NCBI GenBank assembly: GCA_964655955.1
Contig: CAZZPX010000001.1
Location: 1-37,143 of the forward strand
DNA from: an uncultured Phycisphaerales bacterium
GTDB taxonomy: Bacteria; Planctomycetota; Phycisphaerae; Phycisphaerales; JAGLTS01
DNA length: 37,143 nucleotides
Direction: 5' to 3'
Each line of letters opens with the position of its first letter. The stretch's first letter is position 1. Of this stretch, positions 2,559-24,641 are shown piece after piece. The position numbers and the translations under genes were made by a program. The notes beneath the pieces are model-generated. The model did not search any database, was not told where the DNA came from, and worked only from the letters and a program-made list of their open reading frames with translations.

Positions 2559-2601
2559 GCCCCGGCCGGCGTTCCTAGCACCGGCCGGGGCGCTTTTGTT
2601 T
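2559..2601 (+). terminator. GC-rich stem-loop (GCCCCGGCCGG / CCGGCCGGGGC) followed by CTTTTGTTT on the plus strand only
   Basis: Perfect 11-bp stem read directly. It is terminator-like only on the plus strand, although both flanking genes are on the minus strand. It may stop antisense transcription or act as an RNA processing or stability element. Confidence 0.4.
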
Positions 2602-2905: not shown

Positions 2906-2961
2906 GTATCAACTTATGGATATTGTATATCAATTGTCTGATAGTGTCAAGTAGTTGATAC
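2906..2961. promoter_or_regulatory. operator-like repeats in the divergent control region
   Basis: 9-bp inverted repeat GTATCAACT (2906-2914) / AGTTGATAC (2953-2961), plus ATATCAAT (2926-2933). A fourth copy, ATATCAAC (3494-3501), abuts the -35 of the HTH-gene promoter. AT-rich intergenic region between divergent genes. Confidence 0.45.
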
Positions 2962-3422: not shown

Positions 3423-3446
3423 TCGACCACGCGCAACACAAAAGCA

Positions 3447-3475
3447 AAAGCCGCCTTGATGGGCGGCTTTTTTTT
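3447..3475 (+). terminator. rho-independent terminator
   Basis: AAAAGCCGCC-ttgat-GGGCGGCTTTT followed by a T-run through 3475. Confidence 0.85.
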
Positions 3476-3504: not shown

Positions 3505-3534
3505 TTGACATACGTGCCGATGTTGTGTTATCAT
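3505..3534 (+). promoter_or_regulatory. sigma70-like promoter with extended -10
   Basis: TTGACA (3505-3510), 18-nt spacer, TGtTATCAT (TG at 3526-3527, hexamer 3529-3534). The predicted +1 falls on the A of the ATG at 3541. Confidence 0.65.
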
Positions 3535-4014: not shown

Positions 4015-4986
4015 CTAACGGCCGAAGAACGCACGGGCCAGACCGTCGCCACCTCGATAGCGGTCGGCCAGTAGTGCGACGGTCGCGTCTACCTCGGTCT
4101 GGGCGATGTCGTCATAGTAGGCGAGCGTCGTGCGCTCTGAGGTATGGCCGGCCAGAAGTTGTCCTACCTTCGGGTCGCCCGATGCGGCGATAGCATCGGT
4201 CACAAGCCGCTTGCGTATGGCGTGGAAGCCGAACGGCCGCACGCCCGCGAATTCGCAGACGCGGTACAGCCCGATTTGCAGCGCGTCGATACGGATACGT
4301 TTCCCGGTTTGCAAACTCAGGAAGACGTACCCTAAACGCGGTGGCACGTGGGTCAGCCAGCGCCGCAACAACTCCGCAGTCTCATCAAAGAATCGAATCT
4401 CGACCCGGTCGGTTTTGCCCTGGCTATCGGCGCGGTGAACGTGCCGGTGGCCGACGGTCTTAGGCCGGTCGAGCGCCGCAACGACGGCCGCGCGGCGCAA
4501 GTTCCACGCTTCACCGCGCCGGCACGCTGAATCGGCTATGAGGCTGACCAGCGCGGCGTCGCGCAGGTCGCGGGGCTGGTAGCCGCGATGGGCGGCGAAG
4601 GCGCCCAGGCTGGACACGACGGCGGCAAAGTCGGCAGGGTCGGCGGCGCGGCTGTGAACGGGCCGGAATGAGTAGCGGTTATCGCGCCCGCGTAGCACAT
4701 TGGAGCCGTCGAGGGAGCAGTAGCGGCGGTCGGCGGCCCAGCGCCAAAATGCGAGATGCGTCGATTTGTGGCCGGCAAGTGTTCCAGAAGCAAGCCCGCG
4801 CTCGCGCATCTCTGCGAAGAAGTCACTCAGGTCGTTTTGCGCAGCGATGAGTGACAACCCCGCCCGGCCGCGGGCATATTGTCCCAATCGACTGCGCACC
4901 GTTCGCAGGTGCGCGCCGGAACAGCCACGCCGTTCCAGTTCCGACAGGTACGCGTCAATAGCGGCCGATAACGTTTTCGGTTTCAT
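4015..4986 (-). CDS. int: tyrosine integrase (phage integrase family)
   Basis: N-terminal SAM-like core-binding region. C-terminal catalytic signature ...FHAIRKRLVTD...LAGHTSERTTLAYY (HxxR, then H...Y). RBS aGGAGGacaaaactgaATG. Directly adjacent to the tRNA-derived att core. Confidence 0.92.
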   Translation of the reverse strand: MKPKTLSAAIDAYLSELERRGCSGAHLRTVRSRLGQYARGRAGLSLIAAQNDLSDFFAEMRERGLASGTLAGHKSTHLAFWRWAADRRYCSLDGSNVLRGRDNRYSFRPVHSRAADPADFAAVVSSLGAFAAHRGYQPRDLRDAALVSLIADSACRRGEAWNLRRAAVVAALDRPKTVGHRHVHRADSQGKTDRVEIRFFDETAELLRRWLTHVPPRLGYVFLSLQTGKRIRIDALQIGLYRVCEFAGVRPFGFHAIRKRLVTDAIAASGDPKVGQLLAGHTSERTTLAYYDDIAQTEVDATVALLADRYRGGDGLARAFFGR

Positions 4987-5706: not shown

Positions 5707-6590
5707 AGGCCGTTGACTTCTTCCGCGCACTCGATGACAGCGATCTCGACCCGTATGAGACGCGCTTCCTGCTTCGTGTCTGGCGGCGCGGACAATGCTG
5801 GGAATCGCCCGACAGCATCGCGGAATCGACGGGCATGAGCCGCCGCAAGGTGTATCAGGTGCGCAAGAAACTGCTCGAAACGGGCTGGCTTGTGCTGGTC
5901 GAAGTGCCGGGGCACCTCGCCTATCAGGTCGCTATTCCGGCCGCCGAAAATGCCGTTGAAATAGAAGAATCAAATGTTGTAGACGTGCATGAGGTGCACA
6001 CTGATGCTGTTGTATCTGTGCATGACGTGCACAAAGTTGTGCACCACGTGCACAAACCAGTGCACCAGGTGCACGCCCTACCTATTAATAGGACAAAAGA
6101 AGATTACCCCTCTAAGTATATACACGCGCCCGAGGCGGCCGCGTCCGGGAATGGGGCGGGGGAAGAAGACGACGGCTGGAAGCAGGAGGCTTGGGAGGCC
6201 ATCGTAGACCTCATCGAATTCTGGGAGCAGTTGACGCGCCGCAAGGCTCCCCCGCAAAAGTCTGACGTATTCCGGGATTCATGGCTGAAACCGTTTAACG
6301 AAATTTGGATTGCCTGTGGCCATGACGTTGACGCGGCGAAGGCAAAGATTCAGGCCGTGCGCAACGACATGCTGGCGCAGGGCTTGACGATTTTGAACCC
6401 GGCCAAGTTGCCGGGCCATGTGCAAACGATGATTGACCGCGAACTGTTGCCGCTGACGCAGCGGATGAACGGCAACGGTCATGTGAATTTCAAGAACGAC
6501 CCGGAAGCGCGAGAAGCGCATAACCGGGCCGTTTTTGACCAGGTCGCCAGAGAAATCGAAAAAGGAGAGTGGTCACCGTGGACAATTTAA
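5703..6590 (+). CDS. replication initiator / replisome organiser with N-terminal winged-helix domain (lambda O-like logic)
   Basis: N-terminus ...YETRFLLRVWRRGQCWESPDSIAESTGMSRRKVYQVRKKLLETGWL is wHTH-like. An iteron array and an AT-rich tract lie inside the gene. Confidence 0.7.
   Translation: MKAVDFFRALDDSDLDPYETRFLLRVWRRGQCWESPDSIAESTGMSRRKVYQVRKKLLETGWLVLVEVPGHLAYQVAIPAAENAVEIEESNVVDVHEVHTDAVVSVHDVHKVVHHVHKPVHQVHALPINRTKEDYPSKYIHAPEAAASGNGAGEEDDGWKQEAWEAIVDLIEFWEQLTRRKAPPQKSDVFRDSWLKPFNEIWIACGHDVDAAKAKIQAVRNDMLAQGLTILNPAKLPGHVQTMIDRELLPLTQRMNGNGHVNFKNDPEAREAHNRAVFDQVAREIEKGEWSPWTI
5985..6074. repeat. four 15-bp iterons GTGCAY-NNN-GTGCAC (candidate origin-binding sites)
   Basis: GTGCATGAGGTGCAC (5985), GTGCATGACGTGCAC (6018), GTGCACCACGTGCAC (6039), GTGCACCAGGTGCAC (6060). 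The last three are spaced exactly 21 bp apart. They encode the odd VH-rich peptide VHEVH..VHDVHKVVHHVHKPVHQVH. Confidence 0.7.
6075..6125. other. AT-rich tract with palindrome CCTATTAATAGG (6081-6092); candidate DNA-unwinding element
   Basis: A local drop in GC immediately 3' of the iterons, within an otherwise GC-rich coding region. Confidence 0.5.
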
Positions 6591-8510: not shown

Positions 8511-8921
8511 ATGACCCGCCTCACCGCTCTCGCCGCGCTCATCATCATCCTGCTGGCCGTCACGCCTGAGACGCGGGCGACGACCGAGCAGCACGGCTAT
8601 GCCAGCGCCTACGCCCCCGGCGTCATGGATGAGGTCATCCGCTACCGCCTGGACAACAACATCTGGCGCACCCCGCCACCGCGCGACTGGTATCAGGCGC
8701 ATGGCGCAATCGCCGCGATGGACTGCTCGACGGTCGGGCAGATGGCCACTGTCATCGACCCGGCCGGGCGCGAGTACCGTGTGCTCATAGCCGACTGCGC
8801 CGGTGACGACGGGCCGCCGGACAGGTTTAAGAGGATGAACGTCATCCTCGAACTGGACTGGGAACTATGGCAAAGCCTGACGGCCGCGCACGGTCGGCCG
8901 CTGGAGGTAACGCTACAGTGA
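8511..8921 (+). CDS. secreted DPBB-fold (RlpA/3D-domain-like) putative lytic transglycosylase-like protein
   Basis: Signal-peptide-like N-terminus MTRLTALAALIIILLAV. GYASAYAPGVM...GAIAAMDC...YRVLIADCAGDDG resembles the RlpA/3D double-psi beta-barrel pattern. Confidence 0.65.
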   Translation: MTRLTALAALIIILLAVTPETRATTEQHGYASAYAPGVMDEVIRYRLDNNIWRTPPPRDWYQAHGAIAAMDCSTVGQMATVIDPAGREYRVLIADCAGDDGPPDRFKRMNVILELDWELWQSLTAAHGRPLEVTLQ

Positions 8922-9376
8922 GCGGGCCGGACCCTGCAGAGTTGACGACGCGCCAATCCGAGTTGCTACGGTTCATCGTGCGCCATAAAGAGGCGCACGA
9001 CGGTAACAGTCCGACACTCCGCAAGATTGTGGACGGCACCCGATATTCTTCCACGTCGGCCGTGGTTTACGCGCTGAACAAGCTCGAGCGTTACGGCCAC
9101 ATCGTCAGAGGCGACGGCTGTGCCGCTCGTGACATTACGGTGCTCAATACGGATTATGTTCGCAAGATTCGTAAGGATATCGGCATTGACTACTGGCGGC
9201 GACAGGCTGAAATGTGGCGCGATCTGTGCCACGAGTTACAGGAACGCAACGGAAAGCCCGACGTGGAAGAAATGCCGTGTGAGCGTTGCCGCGAGTTAGA
9301 GGGCCAGGTTATGGCGCTCGAAACCGAGTTGTACAGTCTGCGGCGCAGGGTCGCTATGCTGAGCAATGTGATATGA
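8918..9376 (+). CDS. LexA-like winged-HTH DNA-binding protein without a peptidase domain, plus C-terminal coiled coil
   Basis: GTG at 8918 (GTGA overlap) lies 10 nt after GGAGG. LTTRQSELLRFIVRHKEAHDGNSPTLRKIVDGTRYSSTSAVVYALNKLERYGHIVR matches the LexA N-terminal DNA-binding domain pattern. No Ser/Lys S24 domain follows. Confidence 0.7.
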   Translation: MSGPDPAELTTRQSELLRFIVRHKEAHDGNSPTLRKIVDGTRYSSTSAVVYALNKLERYGHIVRGDGCAARDITVLNTDYVRKIRKDIGIDYWRRQAEMWRDLCHELQERNGKPDVEEMPCERCRELEGQVMALETELYSLRRRVAMLSNVI

Positions 9377-9427
9377 GGGCAAGTGTCAAGTGGCACGTAG
9401 GTCGATAGCAAGATTCAGGAGGAACAA

Positions 9428-9691
9428 GTGAAAAGGAATAAGAATTCGCAGTACACTCTCAGTCTGGCCATTGTGGGGTTGTTGGCACTAGCGGCCGTCA
9501 TTTGGCATATGTCCATCGTGACGGCCGAAAGCCCCCCCGAATGGCCAACGGCGACGCCCGGTGCCGCCATGACCGCGCCTGCGCCGGTCAGCGGCTACCC
9601 GGCTCCACCACCGGTCGAGCCCTATCCCGCGCCCTATCCCCCACCTGGCTATCCGTCATTCCTGCCGGCCGTGTTGGAGAGCTACCCGTGA
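9428..9691 (+). CDS. membrane-anchored proline-rich protein
   Basis: GTG start lies after cAGGAGGaacaa. One TM segment, then a PAPxP-rich tail. Confidence 0.7.
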   Translation: MKRNKNSQYTLSLAIVGLLALAAVIWHMSIVTAESPPEWPTATPGAAMTAPAPVSGYPAPPPVEPYPAPYPPPGYPSFLPAVLESYP

Positions 9692-11312: not shown

Positions 11313-11681
11313 ATGAGTTCCGTTTTTGAGTGGACAAAAAAGCGCGAGGAGGCTGCGCTATCTCTTGCGCAAGGCGCAACACAGGCAGAGGCAGCGGAAA
11401 TTGCGGGCGTGTCTGACCGGACAATCCGCAATTGGCTTAACGCGCCGGAGTTCTCCGAGGAGGTTGACCGCCTGACGCTTATGACCGGCATTGCCAACCG
11501 CGCCGAGCGGCTGCGCGTCGTCAAGCGCATTATCAAGCAGCGCGTCAAGGACGGTGAATTTATCCTGTCCGAGAAGGACTTGCTCGATTGGCTGAAATAC
11601 GCGCAGAGCGAGACGGACGGTGTGAAGCTGGACATGGTTGGCTTAATCGATGCGTACCGCAACGAAACCCAAGACCCCTAG
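11313..11681 (+). CDS. terminase small subunit (HTH type)
   Basis: AQGATQAEAAEIAGVSDRTIRNWL is an HTH. Small size, immediately upstream of the large terminase. Confidence 0.75.
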   Translation: MSSVFEWTKKREEAALSLAQGATQAEAAEIAGVSDRTIRNWLNAPEFSEEVDRLTLMTGIANRAERLRVVKRIIKQRVKDGEFILSEKDLLDWLKYAQSETDGVKLDMVGLIDAYRNETQDP

Positions 11682-13239
11682 ACGGCCGCCGCCGTCCGTG
11701 CGGATGGTCCATAGCTGGCCCGATGCGGATAAAGAGGAGCTGCTTCTGGCGACGGCGGCCGCGCGACCGCACGATGCCTCCGCTCCCCTATGGCGACCCA
11801 ACCCCGACCACGACGACGGGCGGCCCAACCCGCAACGGCTGGCCTATGAAAGCGCGGCCGATATCCTCGGCTATGGCGGCGCGGCGGGCGGCGGGAAATC
11901 GGCGCTGCTGCTGGGCCTTGCGGCAACTGCCCACCGGCGTAGCGTCATTTTCCGGCGCGTGTTCCCAAACCTGCGCGGCGTGATTGAGGAGAGCAAGGAG
12001 CTACTAGGCCCTACCGGGTACAACGAAATGCTTCATCGCTGGAGGGTTGCCGGTCGCATTATAGAATTCGAGGCGTGCCAGCACGAAAAGGACAAGGAAA
12101 AGCAGCGCGGACGGCCGCGTGACTTCTATGGCTTTGATGAGGCGACTGAGTTCACCCGGTCGCAGTTTGAATTTATCACCGCCTGGAATCGCACGACGGA
12201 GCCGGGCCAGCGCTGCCGGATTGTGCTCACGTTCAACCCGCCGACCGATGACGCCGGGTCATGGGTGATTGACTACTTCCTGCCGTGGTTTGCTTATCTC
12301 TACCCGACGAAGTTCAGCCACCCTAATCCGGCCGCGCCGGGTGAATTACGCTGGTACGTGACAATCGACGGCCGCGAAGTAGAGCGGCCGGACGGCGCGC
12401 CATTCGAGCATGAGGGCGAGACGCTGCAACCGCGCTCACGCACGTTTATCCCGGCGCGGCTGAGCGACAATCCGCATCTGGCCGAAAGCGGCTATCGTTC
12501 GACCTTGCAGGCGCTTCCTGAGCCATTGCGCTCGCAATTGCTTTATGGCGACTTCGGCGTCGAGGGTCAAGCCGACCCGTGGCAGGTCATTCCGGCGGCG
12601 TGGGTGAAAGCGGCGCAAGCGCGTTGGCTGGAGCGCGAGCGACCCGCCGACATGCCGCTATCGGGCGTGGGCGTTGACGTGGCCAGAGGCGGCCTTGATA
12701 GCATGGTCATCGCCCCGCGCTATGGCTCGTGGTTTGATGAGCCGGTGAAGATACCCGGCGCGGATGTGGCCGATGGCCCGACGGCCGCGGCGCTGGTAGC
12801 GCAGAACGTCAACCGCAAGCAGCACATTGGTTATATCAACGTTGACGTGATTGGAGTGGGCTCGTCGGCCTACGACAGTTTGGCGGCCATGTATCCCGAC
12901 GTGGCGCGGGCGGTCAACGTGGCCGAGGGTAGCAGCTACACGGCCATGTCACAGAGCGACCCGCCGCAACCGCTATTCAGGATGCGCAACAAGCGGGCCG
13001 AGATGTATTGGCGCTTCCGAGAGGCGCTTGACCCCGACGGCGGCGCGGACATCGCCTTGCCGCCGGGCAATGAGCTAGTGGCCGACCTGTGCGCGGCGCG
13101 TTACAAGGTGCTGGCCGGCGGCGTGATTCAGATCGAGGAAAAGGACAAAATCAAAGAGCGGATCGGCCGGTCGCCCGACATGGGCGAGGCCATTATGCTG
13201 GCATGGTATCGGGAGGAGGCCATGCCAGCTTTTCTATGA
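11650..13239 (+). CDS. terminase large subunit
   Basis: Walker A YGGAAGGGKS, followed by ATPase and nuclease-sized domains. The start is ambiguous (11650 or ATG at 11704, neither with a clear RBS). Confidence 0.9.
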   Translation: MRTATKPKTPRRPPPSVRMVHSWPDADKEELLLATAAARPHDASAPLWRPNPDHDDGRPNPQRLAYESAADILGYGGAAGGGKSALLLGLAATAHRRSVIFRRVFPNLRGVIEESKELLGPTGYNEMLHRWRVAGRIIEFEACQHEKDKEKQRGRPRDFYGFDEATEFTRSQFEFITAWNRTTEPGQRCRIVLTFNPPTDDAGSWVIDYFLPWFAYLYPTKFSHPNPAAPGELRWYVTIDGREVERPDGAPFEHEGETLQPRSRTFIPARLSDNPHLAESGYRSTLQALPEPLRSQLLYGDFGVEGQADPWQVIPAAWVKAAQARWLERERPADMPLSGVGVDVARGGLDSMVIAPRYGSWFDEPVKIPGADVADGPTAAALVAQNVNRKQHIGYINVDVIGVGSSAYDSLAAMYPDVARAVNVAEGSSYTAMSQSDPPQPLFRMRNKRAEMYWRFREALDPDGGADIALPPGNELVADLCAARYKVLAGGVIQIEEKDKIKERIGRSPDMGEAIMLAWYREEAMPAFL

Positions 13240-13246
13240 GGTAGCA

Positions 13247-14647
13247 ATGAAAAAAGCAACTGCAGAACTATTCACGGGCACGAAGTCGGTCAGGCTGGAA
13301 GACCTTCCAGAGGAGGCCTGGCGCATCATCGTGGGGGACACGGGCGACGGCCGCGACAGGCTGAGCAAGCTGTTTGGCGCGGTCGGCTGGCTGTATCGCT
13401 GCGTCGATATCCGCGCCGGCGCGGTGGCCAATATGCCCTGGGCTATCCGCAAGGGCGAGACGGTCATCATGACCGATGAGGATGACGCGCCGGAACGCTA
13501 CGAGTGGCTTGCGGATTTACCGGCGATGCTCTACCGGACAGAGGCGGCGCTCGCTCTGGCCGGCCGCGCCTACTGGTTTAACGAGCGCAACTATATGCGC
13601 ACGCTGAATGTGCGCTGGTTGCGGCCGGATAGCGTCAAGCCGGTCATCGACAAGGATAGCGGCTTGACCGGTTTTACCCGCGCCATCGACGGCATGGAAA
13701 AGCCGCTGGAACTGGCCGACATCGTTTACTTCTGGCTTCCTGACCCGTTCGTGGAAATCGGCCCGGCCGAGCACTTTCCCGGCAAGGCGGCGCTCGGCGC
13801 GGCCGGTGTGCTGGCCAACATGGATGCCTTTATCGCCGGCTACTTCGACCGGGGCATGATTAAAGCGACGCTGTTGAAATACCTGACGCCGATGAGCAAG
13901 GATGAAGGCGAGCGCGTGCGCGAGTGGTGGCGGCGCGTGGCCACCGGCATCAGAAACGCATTCACCACCGAGGTTGTGCGCGGTGATTTCGAGGCGCTGA
14001 CTATCGGGGAAGGCTTGCATGACCTGCAGAACACGGCGCTCACCGTCGAACAGCGTGAGGCCATCTGTACGGCGCTGGGCGTGCCGCAGAGCAAGGTTAC
14101 GGCGAACGCGGCCAATTTTGCGACGGCCAATCAGGATGCGCGGGCGTTCATTCAGGACACGATTGCGCCGGAATGCCGCCTGATTGAATCGGCCGTCAAC
14201 CGGCAATTGCTCGGCCCGGCCGGGCTGCGTCTGGAGTTCAAGCCCGACGAATTGCCGGTCATGCAGGAAGATGAGGCGGCGCGGGCGGCGTCGCTGGAGG
14301 CGTTGGTCAGGGCTGGCATGTCGCTGGAAATGGGCATAGCCGTGCTGGGCTATGACCTGCCGGATGATATCGAGCTACGGGAACCGGCCGCGGCCACGCC
14401 TCCGCAGTTGCTACCCTTCACCGGGCGACAGGAACAGACACAACCGGACGGTAACGCGCCGGATGACGGCGAGCGCGTCGAGGAAACGCGCCGCTTCCTG
14501 CGCTGGGCAAAGAAGCGCGAGAATCCCGACCCCGACCAGTTTGAGAGCATGGTGCTCAGCCAGGCCGAGAAGGTTGCATTGTTGGGGGACGCTGATAGCG
14601 ATGATGCCCCCTTTCACGGCGGTCACGACTGGCAAGGCTATCCGTAA
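13247..14647 (+). CDS. portal protein
   Basis: 466 aa, immediately after TerL and before a MuF-like gene. Acidic C-terminal tail. Confidence 0.85.
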   Translation: MKKATAELFTGTKSVRLEDLPEEAWRIIVGDTGDGRDRLSKLFGAVGWLYRCVDIRAGAVANMPWAIRKGETVIMTDEDDAPERYEWLADLPAMLYRTEAALALAGRAYWFNERNYMRTLNVRWLRPDSVKPVIDKDSGLTGFTRAIDGMEKPLELADIVYFWLPDPFVEIGPAEHFPGKAALGAAGVLANMDAFIAGYFDRGMIKATLLKYLTPMSKDEGERVREWWRRVATGIRNAFTTEVVRGDFEALTIGEGLHDLQNTALTVEQREAICTALGVPQSKVTANAANFATANQDARAFIQDTIAPECRLIESAVNRQLLGPAGLRLEFKPDELPVMQEDEAARAASLEALVRAGMSLEMGIAVLGYDLPDDIELREPAAATPPQLLPFTGRQEQTQPDGNAPDDGERVEETRRFLRWAKKRENPDPDQFESMVLSQAEKVALLGDADSDDAPFHGGHDWQGYP

Positions 14648-15347
14648 CCCGGACGGCCGTCAGATGCGGCGCTACGAGCGCGAGTTCGAGGCGGCGGTCA
14701 CGGCGGCGCTCGATCGCCTGCGCCGGGCGATTCAGCGGGATATCTCAGACGACAATGTGCAGGACATGATTGCCCGCCTGAATGACGACGCGGTGACGCG
14801 GCCGTTTCAGGACGCGATTGTGACCGAGTTGGAGCGCGTCGCCCTGGCCGGCTCGGAGTTCGGCCGCCTGCAGGTGGAAGGGGATGTGTTCGGCGTGAAG
14901 GCGCTTGAAATGACGGCGTGGGATTTGGCCAACAACGCGGCTGCGCAGTGGGCGATTGGTTACGGCTATGACCTCGTGCGCGGGCTGCTGGACACGACCC
15001 GCGACCGCCTGCAGATTGAGATTGCCGAGTACATCAACAACTCGCAGACCATTGGCCAGCTTATCGAGCGCATTACGGCCGGCGGCGTGTTCGGCCAGCC
15101 GCGGGCGCACGCGATTGCCGTGACGGAGGTGACACGCGCCTACGCGCAGGGCAATTTGGCGGCGTGGCGTGCGTCGGGCGTCGTCGAGGGCAAGCAGTGG
15201 AACACGAACAACGATGAACTGGTATGCCCGGTGTGTGGCCCGCTGGCCGGGCAAGTGGTCGCGCTTGATGAGCCGTTTCCCGGCAATATTGCCGCGCCGC
15301 CGGCTCATCCGCGTTGCCGGTGCTGGATTGTCCCGAAGGTGACCTGA
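14601..15347 (+). CDS. head morphogenesis protein, SPP1 gp7 / Mu F family
   Basis: C-terminal CPVCGPLAGQVV...PPAHPRCRCW is the family signature. The start is uncertain (ATGATG at 14601 overlapping the portal gene, or ATG at 14664). Confidence 0.85.
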   Translation: MMPPFTAVTTGKAIRNPDGRQMRRYEREFEAAVTAALDRLRRAIQRDISDDNVQDMIARLNDDAVTRPFQDAIVTELERVALAGSEFGRLQVEGDVFGVKALEMTAWDLANNAAAQWAIGYGYDLVRGLLDTTRDRLQIEIAEYINNSQTIGQLIERITAGGVFGQPRAHAIAVTEVTRAYAQGNLAAWRASGVVEGKQWNTNNDELVCPVCGPLAGQVVALDEPFPGNIAAPPAHPRCRCWIVPKVT

Positions 15348-15796
15348 TGGCTACAGAGATACGTGGGCTGGACAAGGTGATTAACAAGCTGGAGAAGATT
15401 GGCGGCCGGGGTGCGCTATTGCGGCCAATGAAGCGGGCGACGGCGTACCTGCACGAAAAGGCGGCCACTTACCCGCCGGCCACGAGCGCCAACCGGCCGC
15501 CGGGCAACAACGGCTATAGCTGGTACGAGCGCGGCTTTGGCACCCGCACGGTGACCGGGGCGGCCTTCCCCACGTCCGAAACGCTCGGCCGTCGCTGGAC
15601 AACCGAGGTCAGCGCCGACGGGCGCAAGGGCGTGGTCGGCAACAACGCCAGCTATGGTCCGTATGTGCAATCGGGCGAGCAGCAGGCCGGTTTTCACGCC
15701 AGAAACGGCTGGAAGACGGACGCGATGATAGCCGAGGAGGAGGGCGACAAGGTTGTCGGCTTCTTTGATGAGGAAATCGCGGAGTTGACGAAATGA
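15347..15796 (+). CDS. hypothetical virion-module protein
   Basis: ATG at 15347 overlaps the upstream TGA by 1 nt. No confident family assignment. Confidence 0.7.
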   Translation: MATEIRGLDKVINKLEKIGGRGALLRPMKRATAYLHEKAATYPPATSANRPPGNNGYSWYERGFGTRTVTGAAFPTSETLGRRWTTEVSADGRKGVVGNNASYGPYVQSGEQQAGFHARNGWKTDAMIAEEEGDKVVGFFDEEIAELTK

Positions 15797-15996
15797 CGAC
15801 CGAACAGATGACCGAACTGCGAACGATATACACGGTCGAGCCGGTGGAGGGCGAGATGGACGCGCCGCAGGTGGAAGATACGGCGATGCGGGCGGTGCTT
15901 CTCGAGATACGGCGGGCGCTGATTACGCAACTGCGTGCGGTCGAGCGGGCGCTCGGCATCTCGCCGTCAATCCCGCCACGGAAGCGGCCGCATTAG
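15793..15996 (+). CDS. hypothetical small protein
   Basis: ATGA overlap with the upstream gene. 67 aa, helical, basic C-terminus. Confidence 0.65.
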   Translation: MTTEQMTELRTIYTVEPVEGEMDAPQVEDTAMRAVLLEIRRALITQLRAVERALGISPSIPPRKRPH

Positions 15997-16085
15997 TCCT
16001 GTCCCGTCAGCCAGCGCCAGAGGGCGACCCATAGCTCGACGTACCAGTAGCGACTGCGGCGATAGGAGCGGCGACGTTTGGTCAT
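15993..16085 (-). CDS. candidate 30-aa Arg/Trp-rich micro-ORF, antisense to the late operon
   Basis: MTKRRRSYRRSRYWYVELWVALWRWLTGQD. ATG at 16085 lies about 47 nt downstream of the predicted start site of a good minus-strand promoter. The RBS is weak (GGGAA). The stop overlaps the convergent gene stop by 3 nt. Confidence 0.35.
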   Translation of the reverse strand: MTKRRRSYRRSRYWYVELWVALWRWLTGQD

Positions 16086-16101
16086 GACGTATATTCCCGT
16101 A

Positions 16102-16131
16102 TTGACATATAGTTGGGGTCTGTTGTAGAAT
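16102..16131 (+). promoter_or_regulatory. sigma70-like promoter facing the capsid gene
   Basis: TTGACA (16102-16107), 18 nt, TAGAAT (16126-16131). Predicted +1 about 16138. Confidence 0.6.
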
Positions 16132-16138
16132 AACAGCA

Positions 16139-16167
16139 ATTGTATTGGTAGCCGTGCCCCCTGGCAA
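16139..16167 (-). promoter_or_regulatory. sigma70-like promoter on the minus strand, face-to-face with the plus promoter
   Basis: Minus strand TTGCCA (16167-16162), 17 nt, TACAAT (16144-16139). Predicted +1 about 16132. Confidence 0.55.
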
Positions 16168-16175
16168 AGTGACCA

Positions 16176-16222
16176 CCGGGCGCGAAGAGACTGATAGTCC
16201 TCTTCGCGCCCGGTTTTGTTTT
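16176..16222 (+). terminator. strong rho-independent terminator immediately upstream of the capsid gene
   Basis: Perfect 14-bp stem CCGGGCGCGAAGAG / CTCTTCGCGCCCGG (16176-16189 / 16200-16213), 10-nt loop, then TTTTGTTTT (16214-16222). Confidence 0.85.
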
Positions 16223-16232
16223 GCGAGGTTCT

Positions 16233-18026
16233 ATGCACGCACTAAAGATTTTGGAGCAAGACGACAAGACCGCCATCCTCGGCGGTTATGGCGTTGTGTT
16301 CGGCGGTTCTGACCTGGAGGGGGAAACGTTCACGCCGGACACTGACTATATGCTCGACCTCGTGCCGGAAAAGCCTGTCTATATCGACCACTCTGAGCCT
16401 ACCTTCGTCGCGGCCGACGGCAAGACGATAAAGCTGGCCGGGATAGATGATCCGGTCGGCCGCGTGTTGGAAGTCACTCCCGACGACGTGGGGCTGTACA
16501 TGCGCCTGCAGGTGGAAAAAGCGGGGCGCTACTGGGAGATTGTCGAGCAGATGGTTGGCACGGGGAAGGCGGGGTTGTCATCTGGCACGGTTGGCCATCT
16601 GGCCCGACGCGCCGGCAAGACGATCACCCGTTGGCCTATCGTGGAGGAGAGTATCACGCTAACCCCGGCCGAGCCGCGCACGGTTGGCGTGGAACGGTTG
16701 AAGGCGCTGGTCGAATTAAACCCTGACCTAGAGGCGGTGCTCCCAGAGGCGGCCGGTAAAACCGCGACGGATGCCGCGACGGAAGGGGCCGAGGAGACGG
16801 CCGCCGGGCGACCGGATATCAAGATTGTTGAATCTGAAACGGAGAAAGATGAAATGAGCGAATTGAACCAGACGCCCGGCGCGGCCGATGACCTGCAGAA
16901 CAAGGTCGATGCCTTGTCGGAGAGCGTCAACAAGATTATGGGGCTGTTGGAAGGCAGCCCGGCGCTGAAGCGAGCCGGTTATACGACCGACGACGGCGGC
17001 GCGGCCGACCCGACGCACAAGAGCTTTGGCGATTTCCTGCTGGCTGTGAAGCGCAATGACGGCAAACGTCTAACCACGATTTACGGCGCGACGAAGGACA
17101 TGGCCGAGGGCAGTGGCGCTAGCGGCGGCTATCTCGTGCCCACCGAGTTCCATGCCCAGCTTTTGCAGGTCATGGCCGAGCAGTCGCCCATCTACGCCCG
17201 CGTGTTCAAGCAGCCGGTCAACACTGACGCGGGCGAGTATCCCGCGCTCGACCAGTTCGCTAGCCCGTCGGCCGGCAGTGGCGACACCGCTATGGCCGGC
17301 GGCGTGAAAGCCAAGAGCAAGGCCGAGGGAGCCGCGCTTGATGAGACTGAGCCGAAGTTCACTGACTTGACCTACCGCATCAACAAGATTGGCGGCTACG
17401 TCGAGGTGTCGAATGAACAGATTGCCGATTCCGCGATTTCTGTCGAAACGCTGCTGCGCCGGCTGTTCGCTATTGCGATTGGCTCCAAGAACGAGCGCAA
17501 CATCCTGCTGGGCAGTGGCACGGGCGAGCCGTTGGGCATCATGAATGCGGATGCCACGATTGGCGTAACAACCGCGACCAATGACGCATTTGCCTACGCT
17601 GACGTGCTGGCGATGTGGGCGAAGTTCAAGAACGTCTCGGGCCAGACGCCGGTGTGGATTTGTCACCCGTCGCTGATTCCGCAGATTGGCACGCTGGCCG
17701 TGGCTTCCGGCTCTCCGGTCGTGTGGGCCGGCAACCTGGCGTCCGGTCAGCCGTCTACGCTGCTGGGCTACCCGATTCTGTTCAGCGAGCACATGTACCA
17801 GTGGAAGGGCGACGACATGCTGCTGGCTGACCTCGGCTCTTACGTCCTGTTCGAGCGCCAGGCGTTGTCCATCGCTTTCAGCGAGCACGCCGCCTTCACC
17901 TCTGACAAGGGGACGTGGCGCTTCACGAGCCGCAACGACGGCAAGCCGTGGGTGAAGAAGCCTATCACGCTGGCCGACCCGACGGGCAGCTACACGGTCA
18001 GCCCGTTCGTCTATCACAACGACTAA
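16233..18026 (+). CDS. in-frame fusion of HK97-type prohead protease, scaffold-like linker and HK97-fold major capsid protein
   Basis: N-terminus GGYGVVFGG...VYIDHSE...AGLSSGT is S78/U35-protease-like. The middle is an acidic/coiled-coil segment. The C-terminus ...SGGYLVPTEFHAQL... and downstream is HK97 MCP-like. An internal in-frame ATG at 16854 has GGAGA 8 nt upstream. Confidence 0.9.
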   Translation: MHALKILEQDDKTAILGGYGVVFGGSDLEGETFTPDTDYMLDLVPEKPVYIDHSEPTFVAADGKTIKLAGIDDPVGRVLEVTPDDVGLYMRLQVEKAGRYWEIVEQMVGTGKAGLSSGTVGHLARRAGKTITRWPIVEESITLTPAEPRTVGVERLKALVELNPDLEAVLPEAAGKTATDAATEGAEETAAGRPDIKIVESETEKDEMSELNQTPGAADDLQNKVDALSESVNKIMGLLEGSPALKRAGYTTDDGGAADPTHKSFGDFLLAVKRNDGKRLTTIYGATKDMAEGSGASGGYLVPTEFHAQLLQVMAEQSPIYARVFKQPVNTDAGEYPALDQFASPSAGSGDTAMAGGVKAKSKAEGAALDETEPKFTDLTYRINKIGGYVEVSNEQIADSAISVETLLRRLFAIAIGSKNERNILLGSGTGEPLGIMNADATIGVTTATNDAFAYADVLAMWAKFKNVSGQTPVWICHPSLIPQIGTLAVASGSPVVWAGNLASGQPSTLLGYPILFSEHMYQWKGDDMLLADLGSYVLFERQALSIAFSEHAAFTSDKGTWRFTSRNDGKPWVKKPITLADPTGSYTVSPFVYHND

Positions 18027-22367: not shown

Positions 22368-22594
22368 GGCGGCAGATTTACAATGCCGCCCTGCTTCCCG
22401 ACAAGCCTCTGCCACTGCCGGCGTGGGTTGGCATCCTGCAGGCGGCCGAACAATGGGGGTGCCCGCCGTGGGATGTGACGGGCGAGACGCCGCCCAAGCG
22501 GGTCATGTGGTTTTTGCGCCGGTCTATCTTTGAGAACGAGAAAGAACGCGGCCTGAGAGACTACCGAAAGCATCATGGGAAAAAACCTGGTTGA
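22089..22594 (+). CDS. tail assembly chaperone, -1 frameshift-extended form (G-T-like)
   Basis: After slippage, my translation is PKRIRRQIYNAALLPDKPLPLPAWVGILQAAEQWGCPPWDVTGETPPKRVMWFLRRSIFENEKERGLRDYRKHHGKKPG, stop at 22592-22594. There is no ATG-initiated ORF here, so the track misses it. Confidence 0.6.
22355..22361 (+). other. candidate -1 programmed frameshift heptamer C CCA AAC
   Basis: X XXY YYZ pattern in the zero frame, 2 codons before the G stop. The -1 frame stays open for about 78 codons from here. Confidence 0.6.
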
Positions 22595-24641
22595 AATCAT
22601 CGTGACGGCCGAGGACAAGGCGAGCAGCGTCTTGCAGGGCATCAGCGGCGGGTTCAAGAACCTGGGTGCTATCGCGTTGGGCGGTATCGGCGTGGCTACG
22701 GGCGCGATAGCAGGCATTACCGCCGGCGTGATTAGCCTGGCTTCCAGCGCCGCGCCGGTGGCCGGGCTGCAACAGGGCTTCGAGGCGCTCACGGCATCGA
22801 TGCAAGGCGGCAGCGCGGCCATGCTCTCGGCGCTGCAAGACGCGTCTGGCGGCCTTGTGACCAACACCGATTTGATGCAATCGTTCAACCAGGCCGCGTC
22901 GCTCGTCTCGAAGGATTTTGCGGAGCAGCTTCCTAACGCGATGGGTTACCTGTCCAAAGTGTCGGCGTCCACCGGGCAGAATATGAATTTCATGCTCGAT
23001 TCGTTGGTAAAGGGCGTCGGCCGTCTCAGTCCGATGATCCTGGACAATCTTGGCATTCAGGTCAACTTGACCGAGGCCAATGAGATTTACGCCAAGAGCG
23101 TGGGCAAGTCGGTTGATGAACTGACGAAGGCTGAGCAGCAGACGGCGCTCATGAACCAGGTCATGGAGAAGCTGGCCGAGAACACCGAGGGCATGGAAGG
23201 TCTGTCTAACCCCTTTGAGAAGTTCAAGGTCACGATTGCGAATTTAAAGGATGAGATCGGCCTCAAGCTGTTGCCGGTCGTCGCGCCGCTGATGGAGCGG
23301 TTTGGGGGGCTGGCCCAGCGCGTCGCGCCTATGCTGGCATCGGCCTTTGAGCGCATCATAACCGGGGCCGAGCCGATCGTTGGCATCTTGGATGCCATCG
23401 CCGTCGCGGTGGGGCAGTTCATTGATGCCATCGGCCGCGGTGAAAGCCCGCTCGACGCGTTGATTAATGCCATCATGCGCTTTGGCGTCGAGATGGGCGT
23501 GCCGTCGGCCAAACTGGTCGAGATTCGCACGGCCATCGAGACGTTCATTGAAAAGGTGACTGAGGGCAAAGACCGCATTATGGAATTCGTCGGGCCGATT
23601 GTCGAATCCATTACGCAGTTCGTTAGCTGGAAGGACGTGCTTATCGCGGCCGCTATCGGCATCGGCGCTATCGTTATCCCGGCGATTATCGGCATCGTTA
23701 CTTCATTAGCTCCGCTCTTGCTCGGTATCGCCGCGGTGATTGCCGTTGTCGCCGTGCTGCGCAATGCCTGGGAGAACAACTGGGGCGGGATTCAGGAAAA
23801 GACGCAGGCGGTCATCGACTTCATCAAGCCGCTGATTCAGAACGCGCTGGCGGCTATTCGTGCCTGGTGGGATGAGAACGGCGCGGCCATTATCGCGGCC
23901 GTGCAAAACGCCTGGACAACGATTCAGACTGCCATTCAGACGATCATCACGGTCATCCAGACAGTCATCCAAACCGCGCTGGCGACAATTCGAGACTGGT
24001 GGAGCCAGCACGGAGAGGCGATTGTAACCACCGCGGACAAGGCGTGGGGATTGATTCGAGATGTCATTAACGCGATGGTCGAGCAAATCAAGCAGATTGT
24101 CGCCGCGTTTCAACTCGCCTTTGAGGGCGACTGGCGCGGGTTTGGCGCGAAGTTGCGCGAGATATGGGAAACCGCATGGCGCACTATTGTCAATTTTCTG
24201 AACGGGCTGTGGGATATGGTACGCCCAAAGGTGGTTGAGCTGTGGGAGCGGCTTAAGGCATGGTTCCAGAATACGGATTGGAAGGCGCTGGGCGTGAGCA
24301 TTGTGCAGGGCATCATCGATGGCATTAATTCGATGATTCAGAACGCCCTCAGCGCCGCCGCCTCAATCGGGAGCGCGATTCAGGACGTTATATCCGGCTT
24401 CATCGGCGGCGGCCCGGCCGGTCGGTCAGGCCGTTCGGCGCGGGTTGGTGCGCCACTTCCTACCAGCATCGGCGGCCGCGCGGCTATCGGCGCGGTCGGT
24501 TCCAGTAGCAGCGTGGCAATTTACATCGACGCCCGCGGCGCGGCGCGGGGCGTGGATGCCGATATTCGGCGTGCGCTGGATATGGCAATGCGCGAGTACG
24601 GCATTGCGGCCGAGACGCGCATCCGCGCAGGGGGGCGCTAA
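22575..24641 (+). CDS. tape measure protein
   Basis: 688 aa, Ala/Ile/Gly-rich helical protein with internal hydrophobic stretch and low-complexity TIQTAIQTIITVIQTVIQTAL. Canonical position. Confidence 0.9.
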   Translation: MGKNLVEIIVTAEDKASSVLQGISGGFKNLGAIALGGIGVATGAIAGITAGVISLASSAAPVAGLQQGFEALTASMQGGSAAMLSALQDASGGLVTNTDLMQSFNQAASLVSKDFAEQLPNAMGYLSKVSASTGQNMNFMLDSLVKGVGRLSPMILDNLGIQVNLTEANEIYAKSVGKSVDELTKAEQQTALMNQVMEKLAENTEGMEGLSNPFEKFKVTIANLKDEIGLKLLPVVAPLMERFGGLAQRVAPMLASAFERIITGAEPIVGILDAIAVAVGQFIDAIGRGESPLDALINAIMRFGVEMGVPSAKLVEIRTAIETFIEKVTEGKDRIMEFVGPIVESITQFVSWKDVLIAAAIGIGAIVIPAIIGIVTSLAPLLLGIAAVIAVVAVLRNAWENNWGGIQEKTQAVIDFIKPLIQNALAAIRAWWDENGAAIIAAVQNAWTTIQTAIQTIITVIQTVIQTALATIRDWWSQHGEAIVTTADKAWGLIRDVINAMVEQIKQIVAAFQLAFEGDWRGFGAKLREIWETAWRTIVNFLNGLWDMVRPKVVELWERLKAWFQNTDWKALGVSIVQGIIDGINSMIQNALSAAASIGSAIQDVISGFIGGGPAGRSGRSARVGAPLPTSIGGRAAIGAVGSSSSVAIYIDARGAARGVDADIRRALDMAMREYGIAAETRIRAGGR

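Follow-up and report, generated by a model that had tools for sequence, protein, structure and literature searches.

The question raised by this locus is why a strong promoter should be followed by a strong terminator ahead of a phage capsid gene, and how that gene would then be expressed. The window, by which we mean the whole stretch of 37,143 nucleotides that was analysed, has a GC content of ~63% and reads as the genome of a temperate tailed phage or as a prophage, with an integrase gene on the minus strand at 4015-4986. Its plus-strand gene array runs in the order replication-type genes, a DUF5131 protein, TerS, TerL, portal, a MuF-like protein, a 160-aa protein matched weakly in PHROGs by a tail-completion/Neck1 protein, a 67-aa ORF, the gap discussed here and the capsid gene. 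The TerS, TerL, portal and MuF genes (11313-15347) lie upstream of the promoter-terminator module. The ribosome-binding site and capsid gene occupy 16225-18026 on the plus strand (GAGG at 16225-16228), and the ATG at 16233, where an earlier sequence-only reading had placed it, was confirmed. The 597-aa product carries the Pfam Phage_capsid domain at residues 298-580, and its N-terminal part is probably a prohead protease; PF04586 and PF05065 are joined in distant capsid homologues. The same reading had taken the gap to be the only sizeable non-coding one in the array, which proved incorrect, as two more are present, of ~207 nt (22368-22574) and ~125 nt (9377-9501). No tRNA or tmRNA was found in the window, and no DNA similar to the 6-kb neighbourhood, or to the gap itself, was found among GenBank phages. 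The proteins of two relatives come from Chloroflexota MAGs, one of a Promineifilum sp. and one of an Anaerolineae bacterium, which hints at Chloroflexota as the host phylum of the window's phage.

A scan of the window recovered the proposed plus-strand promoter, a sigma-70-type TTGACA-18-TAGAAT at 16102-16131 with a predicted start near 16138. It scored 11/12, a score reached by three sites only in the 37-kb window, this one included. Counterparts scoring 9-11 of 12 were present in 10 of 11 relatives, each built as TTGACA, 17-18 nt and a TAnAAT-like -10 box, and the promoter of variant L014, which lies farther upstream, was identified by eye. The stop codon of the upstream small ORF often overlaps the -35 box in these relatives (caTTGACA). 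A LexA-type box (GAAC-N4-GTTC), considered as a general operator of the promoter, was seen in some relatives and not in the window, and was rejected.

The second element, an intrinsic terminator at 16176-16222 on the plus strand, was likewise confirmed. Its perfect 14-bp stem pairs CCGGGCGCGAAGAG (16176-16189) with CTCTTCGCGCCCGG (16200-16213) around a loop at 16190-16199, and is followed by the U-tract TTTTGTTTT (16214-16222). The predicted transcript folds at -47.8 kcal/mol, with z = -6.5 against shuffles. When the window was scanned for hairpins followed by a T-run, this was the strongest plus-strand site within the gene array (~5.3-35 kb), at -30.8 kcal/mol, and the next strong plus-strand terminator downstream in the late operon is met only at ~31.4 kb. 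The module ends 2 nt ahead of the capsid ribosome-binding site.

To place these elements in context, relatives were gathered through a search with the capsid protein, which returned 252, and DNA was fetched around those capsids 64-83% identical to that of the window. The resulting module set comprised 13 distinct sequence variants, the window counted. Phages of this set occur in wastewater and activated sludge, for instance in samples of the projects behind SRR1702231, ERR977414-6 and SRR29748436. In every fetched relative of this identity range the module stood directly upstream of the capsid gene, and it is single-copy in each phage. After the promoter it runs as GCCCCC(U)GG, 4-8 variable bases (19 in L263), CCACCGGGCGCG, a variable upper stem/loop, CGCGCCCGG, a run of 5-7 U, the ribosome-binding site and the ATG. 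The terminators of all variants fold at -34 to -43 kcal/mol with a canonical U-tract, and the distance from the end of the U-tract to the capsid ribosome-binding site is 2-15 nt, or ~40 nt in L014. Between promoter and terminator lies the invariant leader GCCCCCUGG...CCACCGGGCGCG. It is accompanied by a block, GTATTGGTA (16143-16151, plus strand), which takes the form GTATWGGTA in 10 of the 13 variants and is missing from L012, L014 and L015. The spacing from the -10 box to GCCCCC varies among the variants from 10 nt (L015) to 37 nt (L012), a variation that speaks for recognition in the RNA and against recognition at a fixed position in promoter DNA.

Wider searches added no further copies. 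Protein-based scans found no relatives in the genome collection or in the metagenome collection. The sole DNA-pattern match in the genome collection, Saccharothrix L009, was a chance match inside Pro/Gly-rich coding DNA. Matches to the degenerate core motif were mostly chance occurrences in GC-rich DNA, and requiring the full hairpin and T-run left the known variants only. Searches of Rfam with the window and 10 related loci gave no match at the gathering threshold, the best sub-threshold match being Termite-leu (22 bits against a threshold of 51); the leader is thus an RNA motif absent from Rfam.

We then considered how the leader would fold in the nascent RNA, the only RNA present before the 3' arm of the terminator is made. 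Twelve variants were folded, and each gave the same imperfect hairpin as its minimum-energy structure (-11 to -18 kcal/mol). In the window it spans 16153-16184 on the plus strand. Its lower helix pairs 16153-16159 with 16178-16184 around a GCCC/GGGC core (4-6 bp across the variants), and above it a symmetric internal loop sets CC (16160-16161) opposite CC (16176-16177). The upper helix, P1, consists of 3 bp, UGG (16162-16164) with CCA (16173-16175), closed by a loop at 16165-16172. This hairpin takes 6-9 bases of the 5' arm of the terminator, so the two folds are mutually exclusive, and the arrangement looks like an antiterminator/terminator pair. That the leader hairpin acts as an antiterminator is a well-motivated inference. 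That GCCCCC, CCGGGC and GCCCGG never change is consistent with a three-way constraint on pairing. The pairing energy of leader with terminator arm, in turn, beats that of shuffled leaders in only about half of the variants.

Both P1 and the terminator covary. RNAalifold, run on a plain MAFFT alignment of the variants, predicted these two helices with compensatory changes at 8 pairs, namely 6 of the 14 terminator pairs and 2 of the 3 pairs of P1 (UGC/GCA in L015, GGG/CCC in L019). Across P1 and terminator 96.8% of cells were paired, against 38-56% in a control in which the 3' partners were slid by 1-3 columns, and none of 500 shuffles matched any observed pairing measure. In L263 the P1 loop holds an additional helix of 6 bp, an insertion of the kind tolerated by a genuine hairpin. 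The lower helix, however, has four core pairs (GCCC/GGGC) that never vary, and covariation cannot confirm this part of the candidate antiterminator. These data also bear on whether promoter and terminator might be nothing but chance consensus matches in an AT-richer spacer, devoid of any regulatory role. Counts of promoter-like and terminator-like sites over a 12-kb scan were indeed near the shuffled expectation. The elements of the module are nevertheless conserved position by position in the 13 variants, with covariation, and its promoter is among the window's three best matches, so that we regard a chance origin as extremely improbable.

The reading that we favour, with moderate confidence, is that the module acts as a transcription attenuator, a promoter-proximal checkpoint of termination that gates the capsid, tail and lysis genes. 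Polymerase arriving from the promoter at 16102-16131, or from the upstream packaging genes, would stop by default at 16214-16222. This default stop would release a short RNA, of ~85 nt here and ~65-95 nt in relatives, and would leave the capsid, tail and lysis genes silent. The polymerase would read through when the imperfect hairpin (GU)GCCC-CC-UGG...CCA-CC-GGGC(GC), which is predicted to form before the terminator, is held closed. At -11 to -18 kcal/mol against -31 to -43 kcal/mol, the candidate antiterminator by itself is no match for the terminator, and a trans-acting factor would be needed for this. We infer, then, efficient termination, regulated read-through and a regulatory role for the hairpin, and the same holds for the identity of any acting factor discussed below. 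The phage is temperate, judging from its integrase, and an unregulated strong promoter for capsid would be costly to it. Counted against the checkpoint is a layout that differs from that of lambda PR', with the terminase and portal genes ahead of the module. The expectation from the sequence-only reading, that the order promoter, terminator, gene calls for either antitermination or an ~85-nt sRNA, fits a unit that is conserved, covaries in terminator and P1, and carries a leader hairpin in competition with the terminator.

Among known attenuators, the closest parallels are the RAT sites of BglG/LicT and the attenuators controlled by ANTAR proteins. Like the module, these have a small imperfect hairpin with an internal loop that is conserved; the hairpin takes up part of the 5' arm of a much stronger terminator and would need a bound factor to prevail. 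The module differs from them in that no CAT/PRD or ANTAR domain was recognised in the window ORFs scanned, in that its sequence and shape are unlike the RAT and ANTAR dual-hexaloop consensuses and give no Rfam match, and in that it belongs to a phage late operon and not to a catabolic one.

The late control region of lambdoid phages (PR'-tR', 6S/StxS and Q) offers a second comparison. Common to both are a strong, apparently constitutive promoter, an efficient-looking terminator within ~85 nt, a position ahead of the structural or lysis genes of a temperate phage, and a short RNA as the default product. In contrast to lambda PR'-tR'/Q, none of the early and middle ORFs here gave a Q-like match in Pfam or PHROGs, and there is no fixed promoter-pause geometry, since the distance from the -10 box to the leader ranges over 10-37 nt and GTATWGGTA is missing in 3 of the 13 variants. 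The module also stands midway through the late region, preceded by terminase, portal and MuF and followed directly by capsid. Furthermore, its leader can form a terminator-competing hairpin, and Q does not work through such a hairpin. The module would thus work like lambda PR'-tR' but is no member of that system.

The comparison leads to a different account of read-through, processive antitermination of the lambda Q, N/nut or HK022 put type, in which leader DNA or RNA loads a factor or modifies the polymerase, which would then pass this terminator as well as later ones, and the competition between hairpin and terminator is irrelevant. The order of the elements matches PR'-tR', and two adjacent hairpins past the promoter are reminiscent of put and nut sites; structured RNA near a promoter and phage transcription through terminators are common to the lambda N/nut and HK022 put systems and to this locus. 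The latter systems, however, modify RNA polymerase processively and do not overlap the terminator, whereas the hairpin here overlaps the terminator arm in every variant. Neither Q nor N homologues were found in the window, nor was an N-like protein or a boxA-like sequence recognised, and for HK022 put-type RNA, whose two hairpins modify the polymerase independently of any factor, only the two-hairpin layout is comparable. The 10-37 nt between -10 box and leader are unfit for the geometry of a Q-binding site and sigma pause. Processivity is also not obviously needed, since no other strong plus-strand terminator follows in the late operon until ~31.4 kb. Taken together, we consider processive antitermination very unlikely at this locus, and retain attenuation as the preferred reading.

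A competing explanation treats the module as a free-standing gene for a trans-acting sRNA, with GCCCCCUGG as the seed and the hairpin and U-tract as an ordinary sRNA terminator, the capsid gene being served by partial, unregulated read-through from a very strong promoter. In Stx phages the terminated PR'-tR' leader is the sRNA StxS, which illustrates that such leaders can act in trans (PMC7547250). Conservation here extends to the promoter, the terminator and a transcript of ~65-85 nt, as an sRNA gene would have it. The invariant 9-mer looks single-stranded and is placed 5'-terminally or nearly so (in L015 only ~3 nt separate it from the predicted start), and the same 9-mer stands ahead of an unrelated terminator in the distant relative L321. 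A seed, on the other hand, leaves unexplained both the invariance of the lower terminator stem and the adjacent P1 covariation, as well as the constant closeness of the U-tract to the ribosome-binding site (2-15 nt, or ~40 in L014). Moreover, targets complementary to the leader 9-mer occur in the window at chance counts. An sRNA gene in place of a checkpoint is therefore unlikely in our judgement, while an sRNA role is compatible with the checkpoint, and the RNA could do both.

More distant phages were informative about how widely such an arrangement occurs. Loci whose capsids are 33-50% identical mostly have no gap upstream of the capsid gene. Nonetheless, about 20 of ~60 distant loci carry a strong promoter, a 60-190-nt leader of unrelated sequence and a strong terminator, placed before the capsid gene or before a small gene that precedes it. 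Four of them (L279, L300, L306 and L322), referred to here as type B, have a pre-terminator hairpin GGC-AG-UCC-n4-GGA-AC-GCC, of the same shape as that of the window and of other sequence, which overlaps the terminator arm CGCCGC. Window-type and type B hairpins share their shape but not their sequence, and a joint MAFFT alignment misaligned them. Locus L261 shows the classic three-segment layout, in which segment 1 pairs with 2 or segment 2 with 3. That promoter, leader and terminator recur in distant phages favours the view that attenuation is widely used within this phage group.

The sequence-only reading had further proposed a pair of face-to-face promoters, the minus-strand one driving an antisense micro-ORF. 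A minus-strand promoter, TTGCCA-17-TACAAT at 16167-16139, was indeed found by the scan, with a score of 10/12 and a predicted start near 16132, inside the conserved leader. Sites of at least 10/12 on one strand arose in 0.7% of dinucleotide shuffles of the gap (p ~0.007). No minus-strand promoter-like site of at least 9/12 was present, however, in 11 relatives, so a face-to-face switch is not part of the module. The micro-ORF, on the minus strand from 16085 to 15993, translates as had been stated to the 30-codon MTKRRRSYRRSRYWYVELWVALWRWLTGQD*, and its stop codon overlaps that of the 67-aa ORF. It sits on an insertion of ~102 bp (15995-16096) that is present in the window only and absent from the fetched relatives, a comparison made among relatives other than the closest, P0002 (83% identical); no DNA or peptide similar to the insertion or the micro-ORF was found in any fetched locus. 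The micro-ORF is thus likewise not part of the module. In the alignment of relatives, the plus promoter, leader and hairpin are conserved as a unit, while the minus promoter and the micro-ORF are not. The insertion is flanked by an imperfect 7-bp direct repeat, CCGCATT (15988-15994) and CCGTATT (16097-16103). At the same junction L014 has CCGCATT-11 bp-CCGCATT and L021 carries an inserted Lar-like gene, so that the site looks like a hotspot for insertions.

The micro-ORF is not obviously spurious. Its GC3, counted from the sequence, is 0.80, as in real genes here, and a phmmer search of 1.84 billion representatives returned one homologue, P0140 (MPNRRRGPRRYWYVEIWVALWRWLTGQGDDPRR), of 33 aa and 81% identical (E 5.9e-6), encoded on a 929-bp contig from another metagenome. 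The two peptides differ by an in-frame two-codon indel and share the core YWYVE(L/I)WVALWRWLTGQ. No Pfam or PHROG match was obtained for the micro-ORF, and back-translated patterns found no copies of it in IMG/VR. In composition only, it resembles Arg/Trp-rich membrane-active or ARM peptides, with a basic N-terminus, KRRRSYRRSR, and a Trp-rich aromatic helix. It differs from lambda N, a protein of ~100 aa, in that its 30 aa lack NusA- and RNAP-binding regions, and it is absent from 12 relatives which keep the same leader RNA. In small membrane proteins of the type I toxin kind, a hydrophobic transmembrane helix spans ~18-20 residues, and a cis-antisense RNA accompanies the gene; the aromatic segment here, YWYVELWVALWRWL, comprises 14 residues, E and R among them.

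These features allow for a switch restricted to the window's lineage, in which the antisense promoter competes with the capsid promoter and drives the inserted Arg/Trp-rich micro-protein, either as an extra layer of control or as a peptide expressed in the lysogen. We hold this to be possible, if doubtful. The rarity of a 10/12 promoter on the correct strand among shuffles (0.7%) speaks for it, as do the co-occurrence of antisense promoter and insertion in one lineage, the GC3 of 0.80, the conserved core and in-frame indel shared with P0140, and the other inserts carried at the same site in relatives (the Lar-like gene in L021). Against this, only one genome has both features and only two peptide sequences are available. 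The antisense hexamers are 1-2 substitutions away from CTGGCAAAG (L010 and L263) and AGTTGTAT (L021) of relatives, which are there for other reasons. In addition, the Shine-Dalgarno sequence, as read from the DNA, is weak (GGGA ~9 nt upstream), the 14-residue aromatic segment is too short for a typical transmembrane toxin, and the micro-ORF has neither a family match nor an IMG/VR copy. Separate from the module and specific to this lineage, the antisense promoter and micro-ORF may be a genuine addition.

As to the trans-acting factor proposed above, no Q, N, RinA-type, CAT/PRD or ANTAR protein was recognisable among the window ORFs scanned, early genes included. Several early and middle ORFs match nothing in Pfam or PHROGs and may include a new analogue of Q, and within the DNA fetched none of the early proteins of the window is shared with the other phages that carry the invariant leader. 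The 65-70-aa helical protein encoded upstream is the only conserved non-structural neighbour of the module. In the window this is the 67-aa ORF (15793-15996, plus strand), the last gene of the packaging/portal block, with the C-terminus ...RRALITQLRAVERALGISPSIPPRKRPH. All 26 loci with a window-type module have a homologue directly ahead of it, and weak homologues (E 0.001-0.1) precede the type B modules and L309. The protein has no Pfam, PHROG or PDB relative, and its 96 database homologues are all annotated as hypothetical. Its structural model is a single helix at residues 29-54 (pLDDT 77; RRRAIITELRKIE...) with a basic tail. We thus regard the 65-70-aa upstream protein as a candidate read-through factor, its adjacency to the module being explained equally well by simple linkage. 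Taken further, the leader hairpin with its invariant CC/CC loop would be the RNA target of a new group of very small phage antiterminators, the 65-70-aa single-helix proteins. Expression of the packaging operon would then license the capsid, tail and lysis genes in a feed-forward manner, and the antisense promoter and micro-protein would form a second, mutually exclusive layer in this phage. We offer this extended scheme as a speculation, distinctly unlikely to hold in full.

To our knowledge, the regulation of genes in phages whose hosts are uncultivated bacteria of the Chloroflexota type has hardly been described. The module reported here is a compact, conserved control point, apparently dividing the virion genes between a packaging block and a capsid/tail/lysis block, and similar arrangements of promoter, leader and terminator are found in many phages that are distantly related. 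From the insertion in the window it can be seen how a control region of this kind can gain an antisense promoter and a small new gene. Like StxS, the short RNA might also be an sRNA expressed in the lysogen. If the small adjacent protein does open the module, the two would constitute a new minimal antitermination system.

The order of a promoter, a leader of 60-190 nt and a strong terminator ahead of the capsid block was also found in distant phages, whose capsid proteins are 34-50% identical to that of the window. Among the fetched loci of related phages (L numbers), this arrangement was identified in L279, L281, L284, L285, L293, L297, L298, L300, L302, L306, L308, L309, L320-L323, L260 and L261. 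The leaders of these phages fall into several sequence types that are unrelated to one another, some of them having in common an A-rich AAUAA or CUGAAUA stretch upstream of the pre-terminator hairpin, and none of the distant-phage leaders gave a match in Rfam. One of these loci, L321, with a capsid only 37% identical, carries the 9-mer AAGCCCCCTGG at about positions 2150-2160, the same as the core of the window-type leader, and here it lies approximately 30 nt 5' of an unrelated terminator.

What appears to be an insertion hotspot lies where the small upstream ORF meets the -35 box of the capsid promoter; this site is occupied by a Lar_restr_allev gene in the relative L021 (5633-5869) and by an 11-bp insert between duplicated CCGCATT copies in L014 (about 5790-5815). 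In the window's own insertion, the plus-strand sequence CCAGAGGGC (16017-16025) and the leader core GCCCCCUGG are complementary at all but one base, a match that is probably due to chance.

The called plus-strand ORFs leave another gap, of about 207 nt, at 22368-22574 (+), directly 5' of a 688-aa gene (22575-24641); judged by its position, it may represent a tail-chaperone frameshift region rather than true non-coding DNA. In the 597-aa 'capsid' protein, the Phage_capsid domain does not cover the first ~200 residues (16233 to about 16830, plus strand), and distant homologues of this protein carry PF04586 (Peptidase_S78) at the N-terminal position. The gene at 16233 probably encodes a prohead protease-capsid fusion rather than a plain capsid protein.

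The two remaining near-consensus promoters of the window, TTGACA-17-TACAAT (2922-2950, minus strand) and TTGACA-18-TATCAT with a TG (3505-3534, plus strand), together with two clean terminators (2561-2601, plus strand; 3443-3471, both strands), surround a bPH-domain gene and small ORFs adjoining the integrase, a region that probably holds accessory genes expressed in the lysogen. A further plus-strand hairpin (13197-13239; -22.6 kcal/mol), followed by TTTTCT, falls at the TerL/portal junction, inside the final codons of TerL.

A LexA_DNA_bind winged-helix domain (Pfam E 1.4e-9) is present in a protein of 169 aa that the window encodes at 8867-9376 (plus strand), its gene lying in the early/middle region directly ahead of the packaging genes. 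The capsid-promoter spacer of several relatives contains GAAC-N4-GTTC, perfect in L001 (2487-2498) and L012 (809-820) and with one mismatch in L002, L014 and L018, which we take to be a LexA (Cheo) box of the Gram-positive/Chloroflexi type. The corresponding spacer in the window reads TAGTTGGGGTCTG, and the motif is lost there. If the motif is indeed such a box, the capsid promoter would be under SOS control in the phages that carry it.
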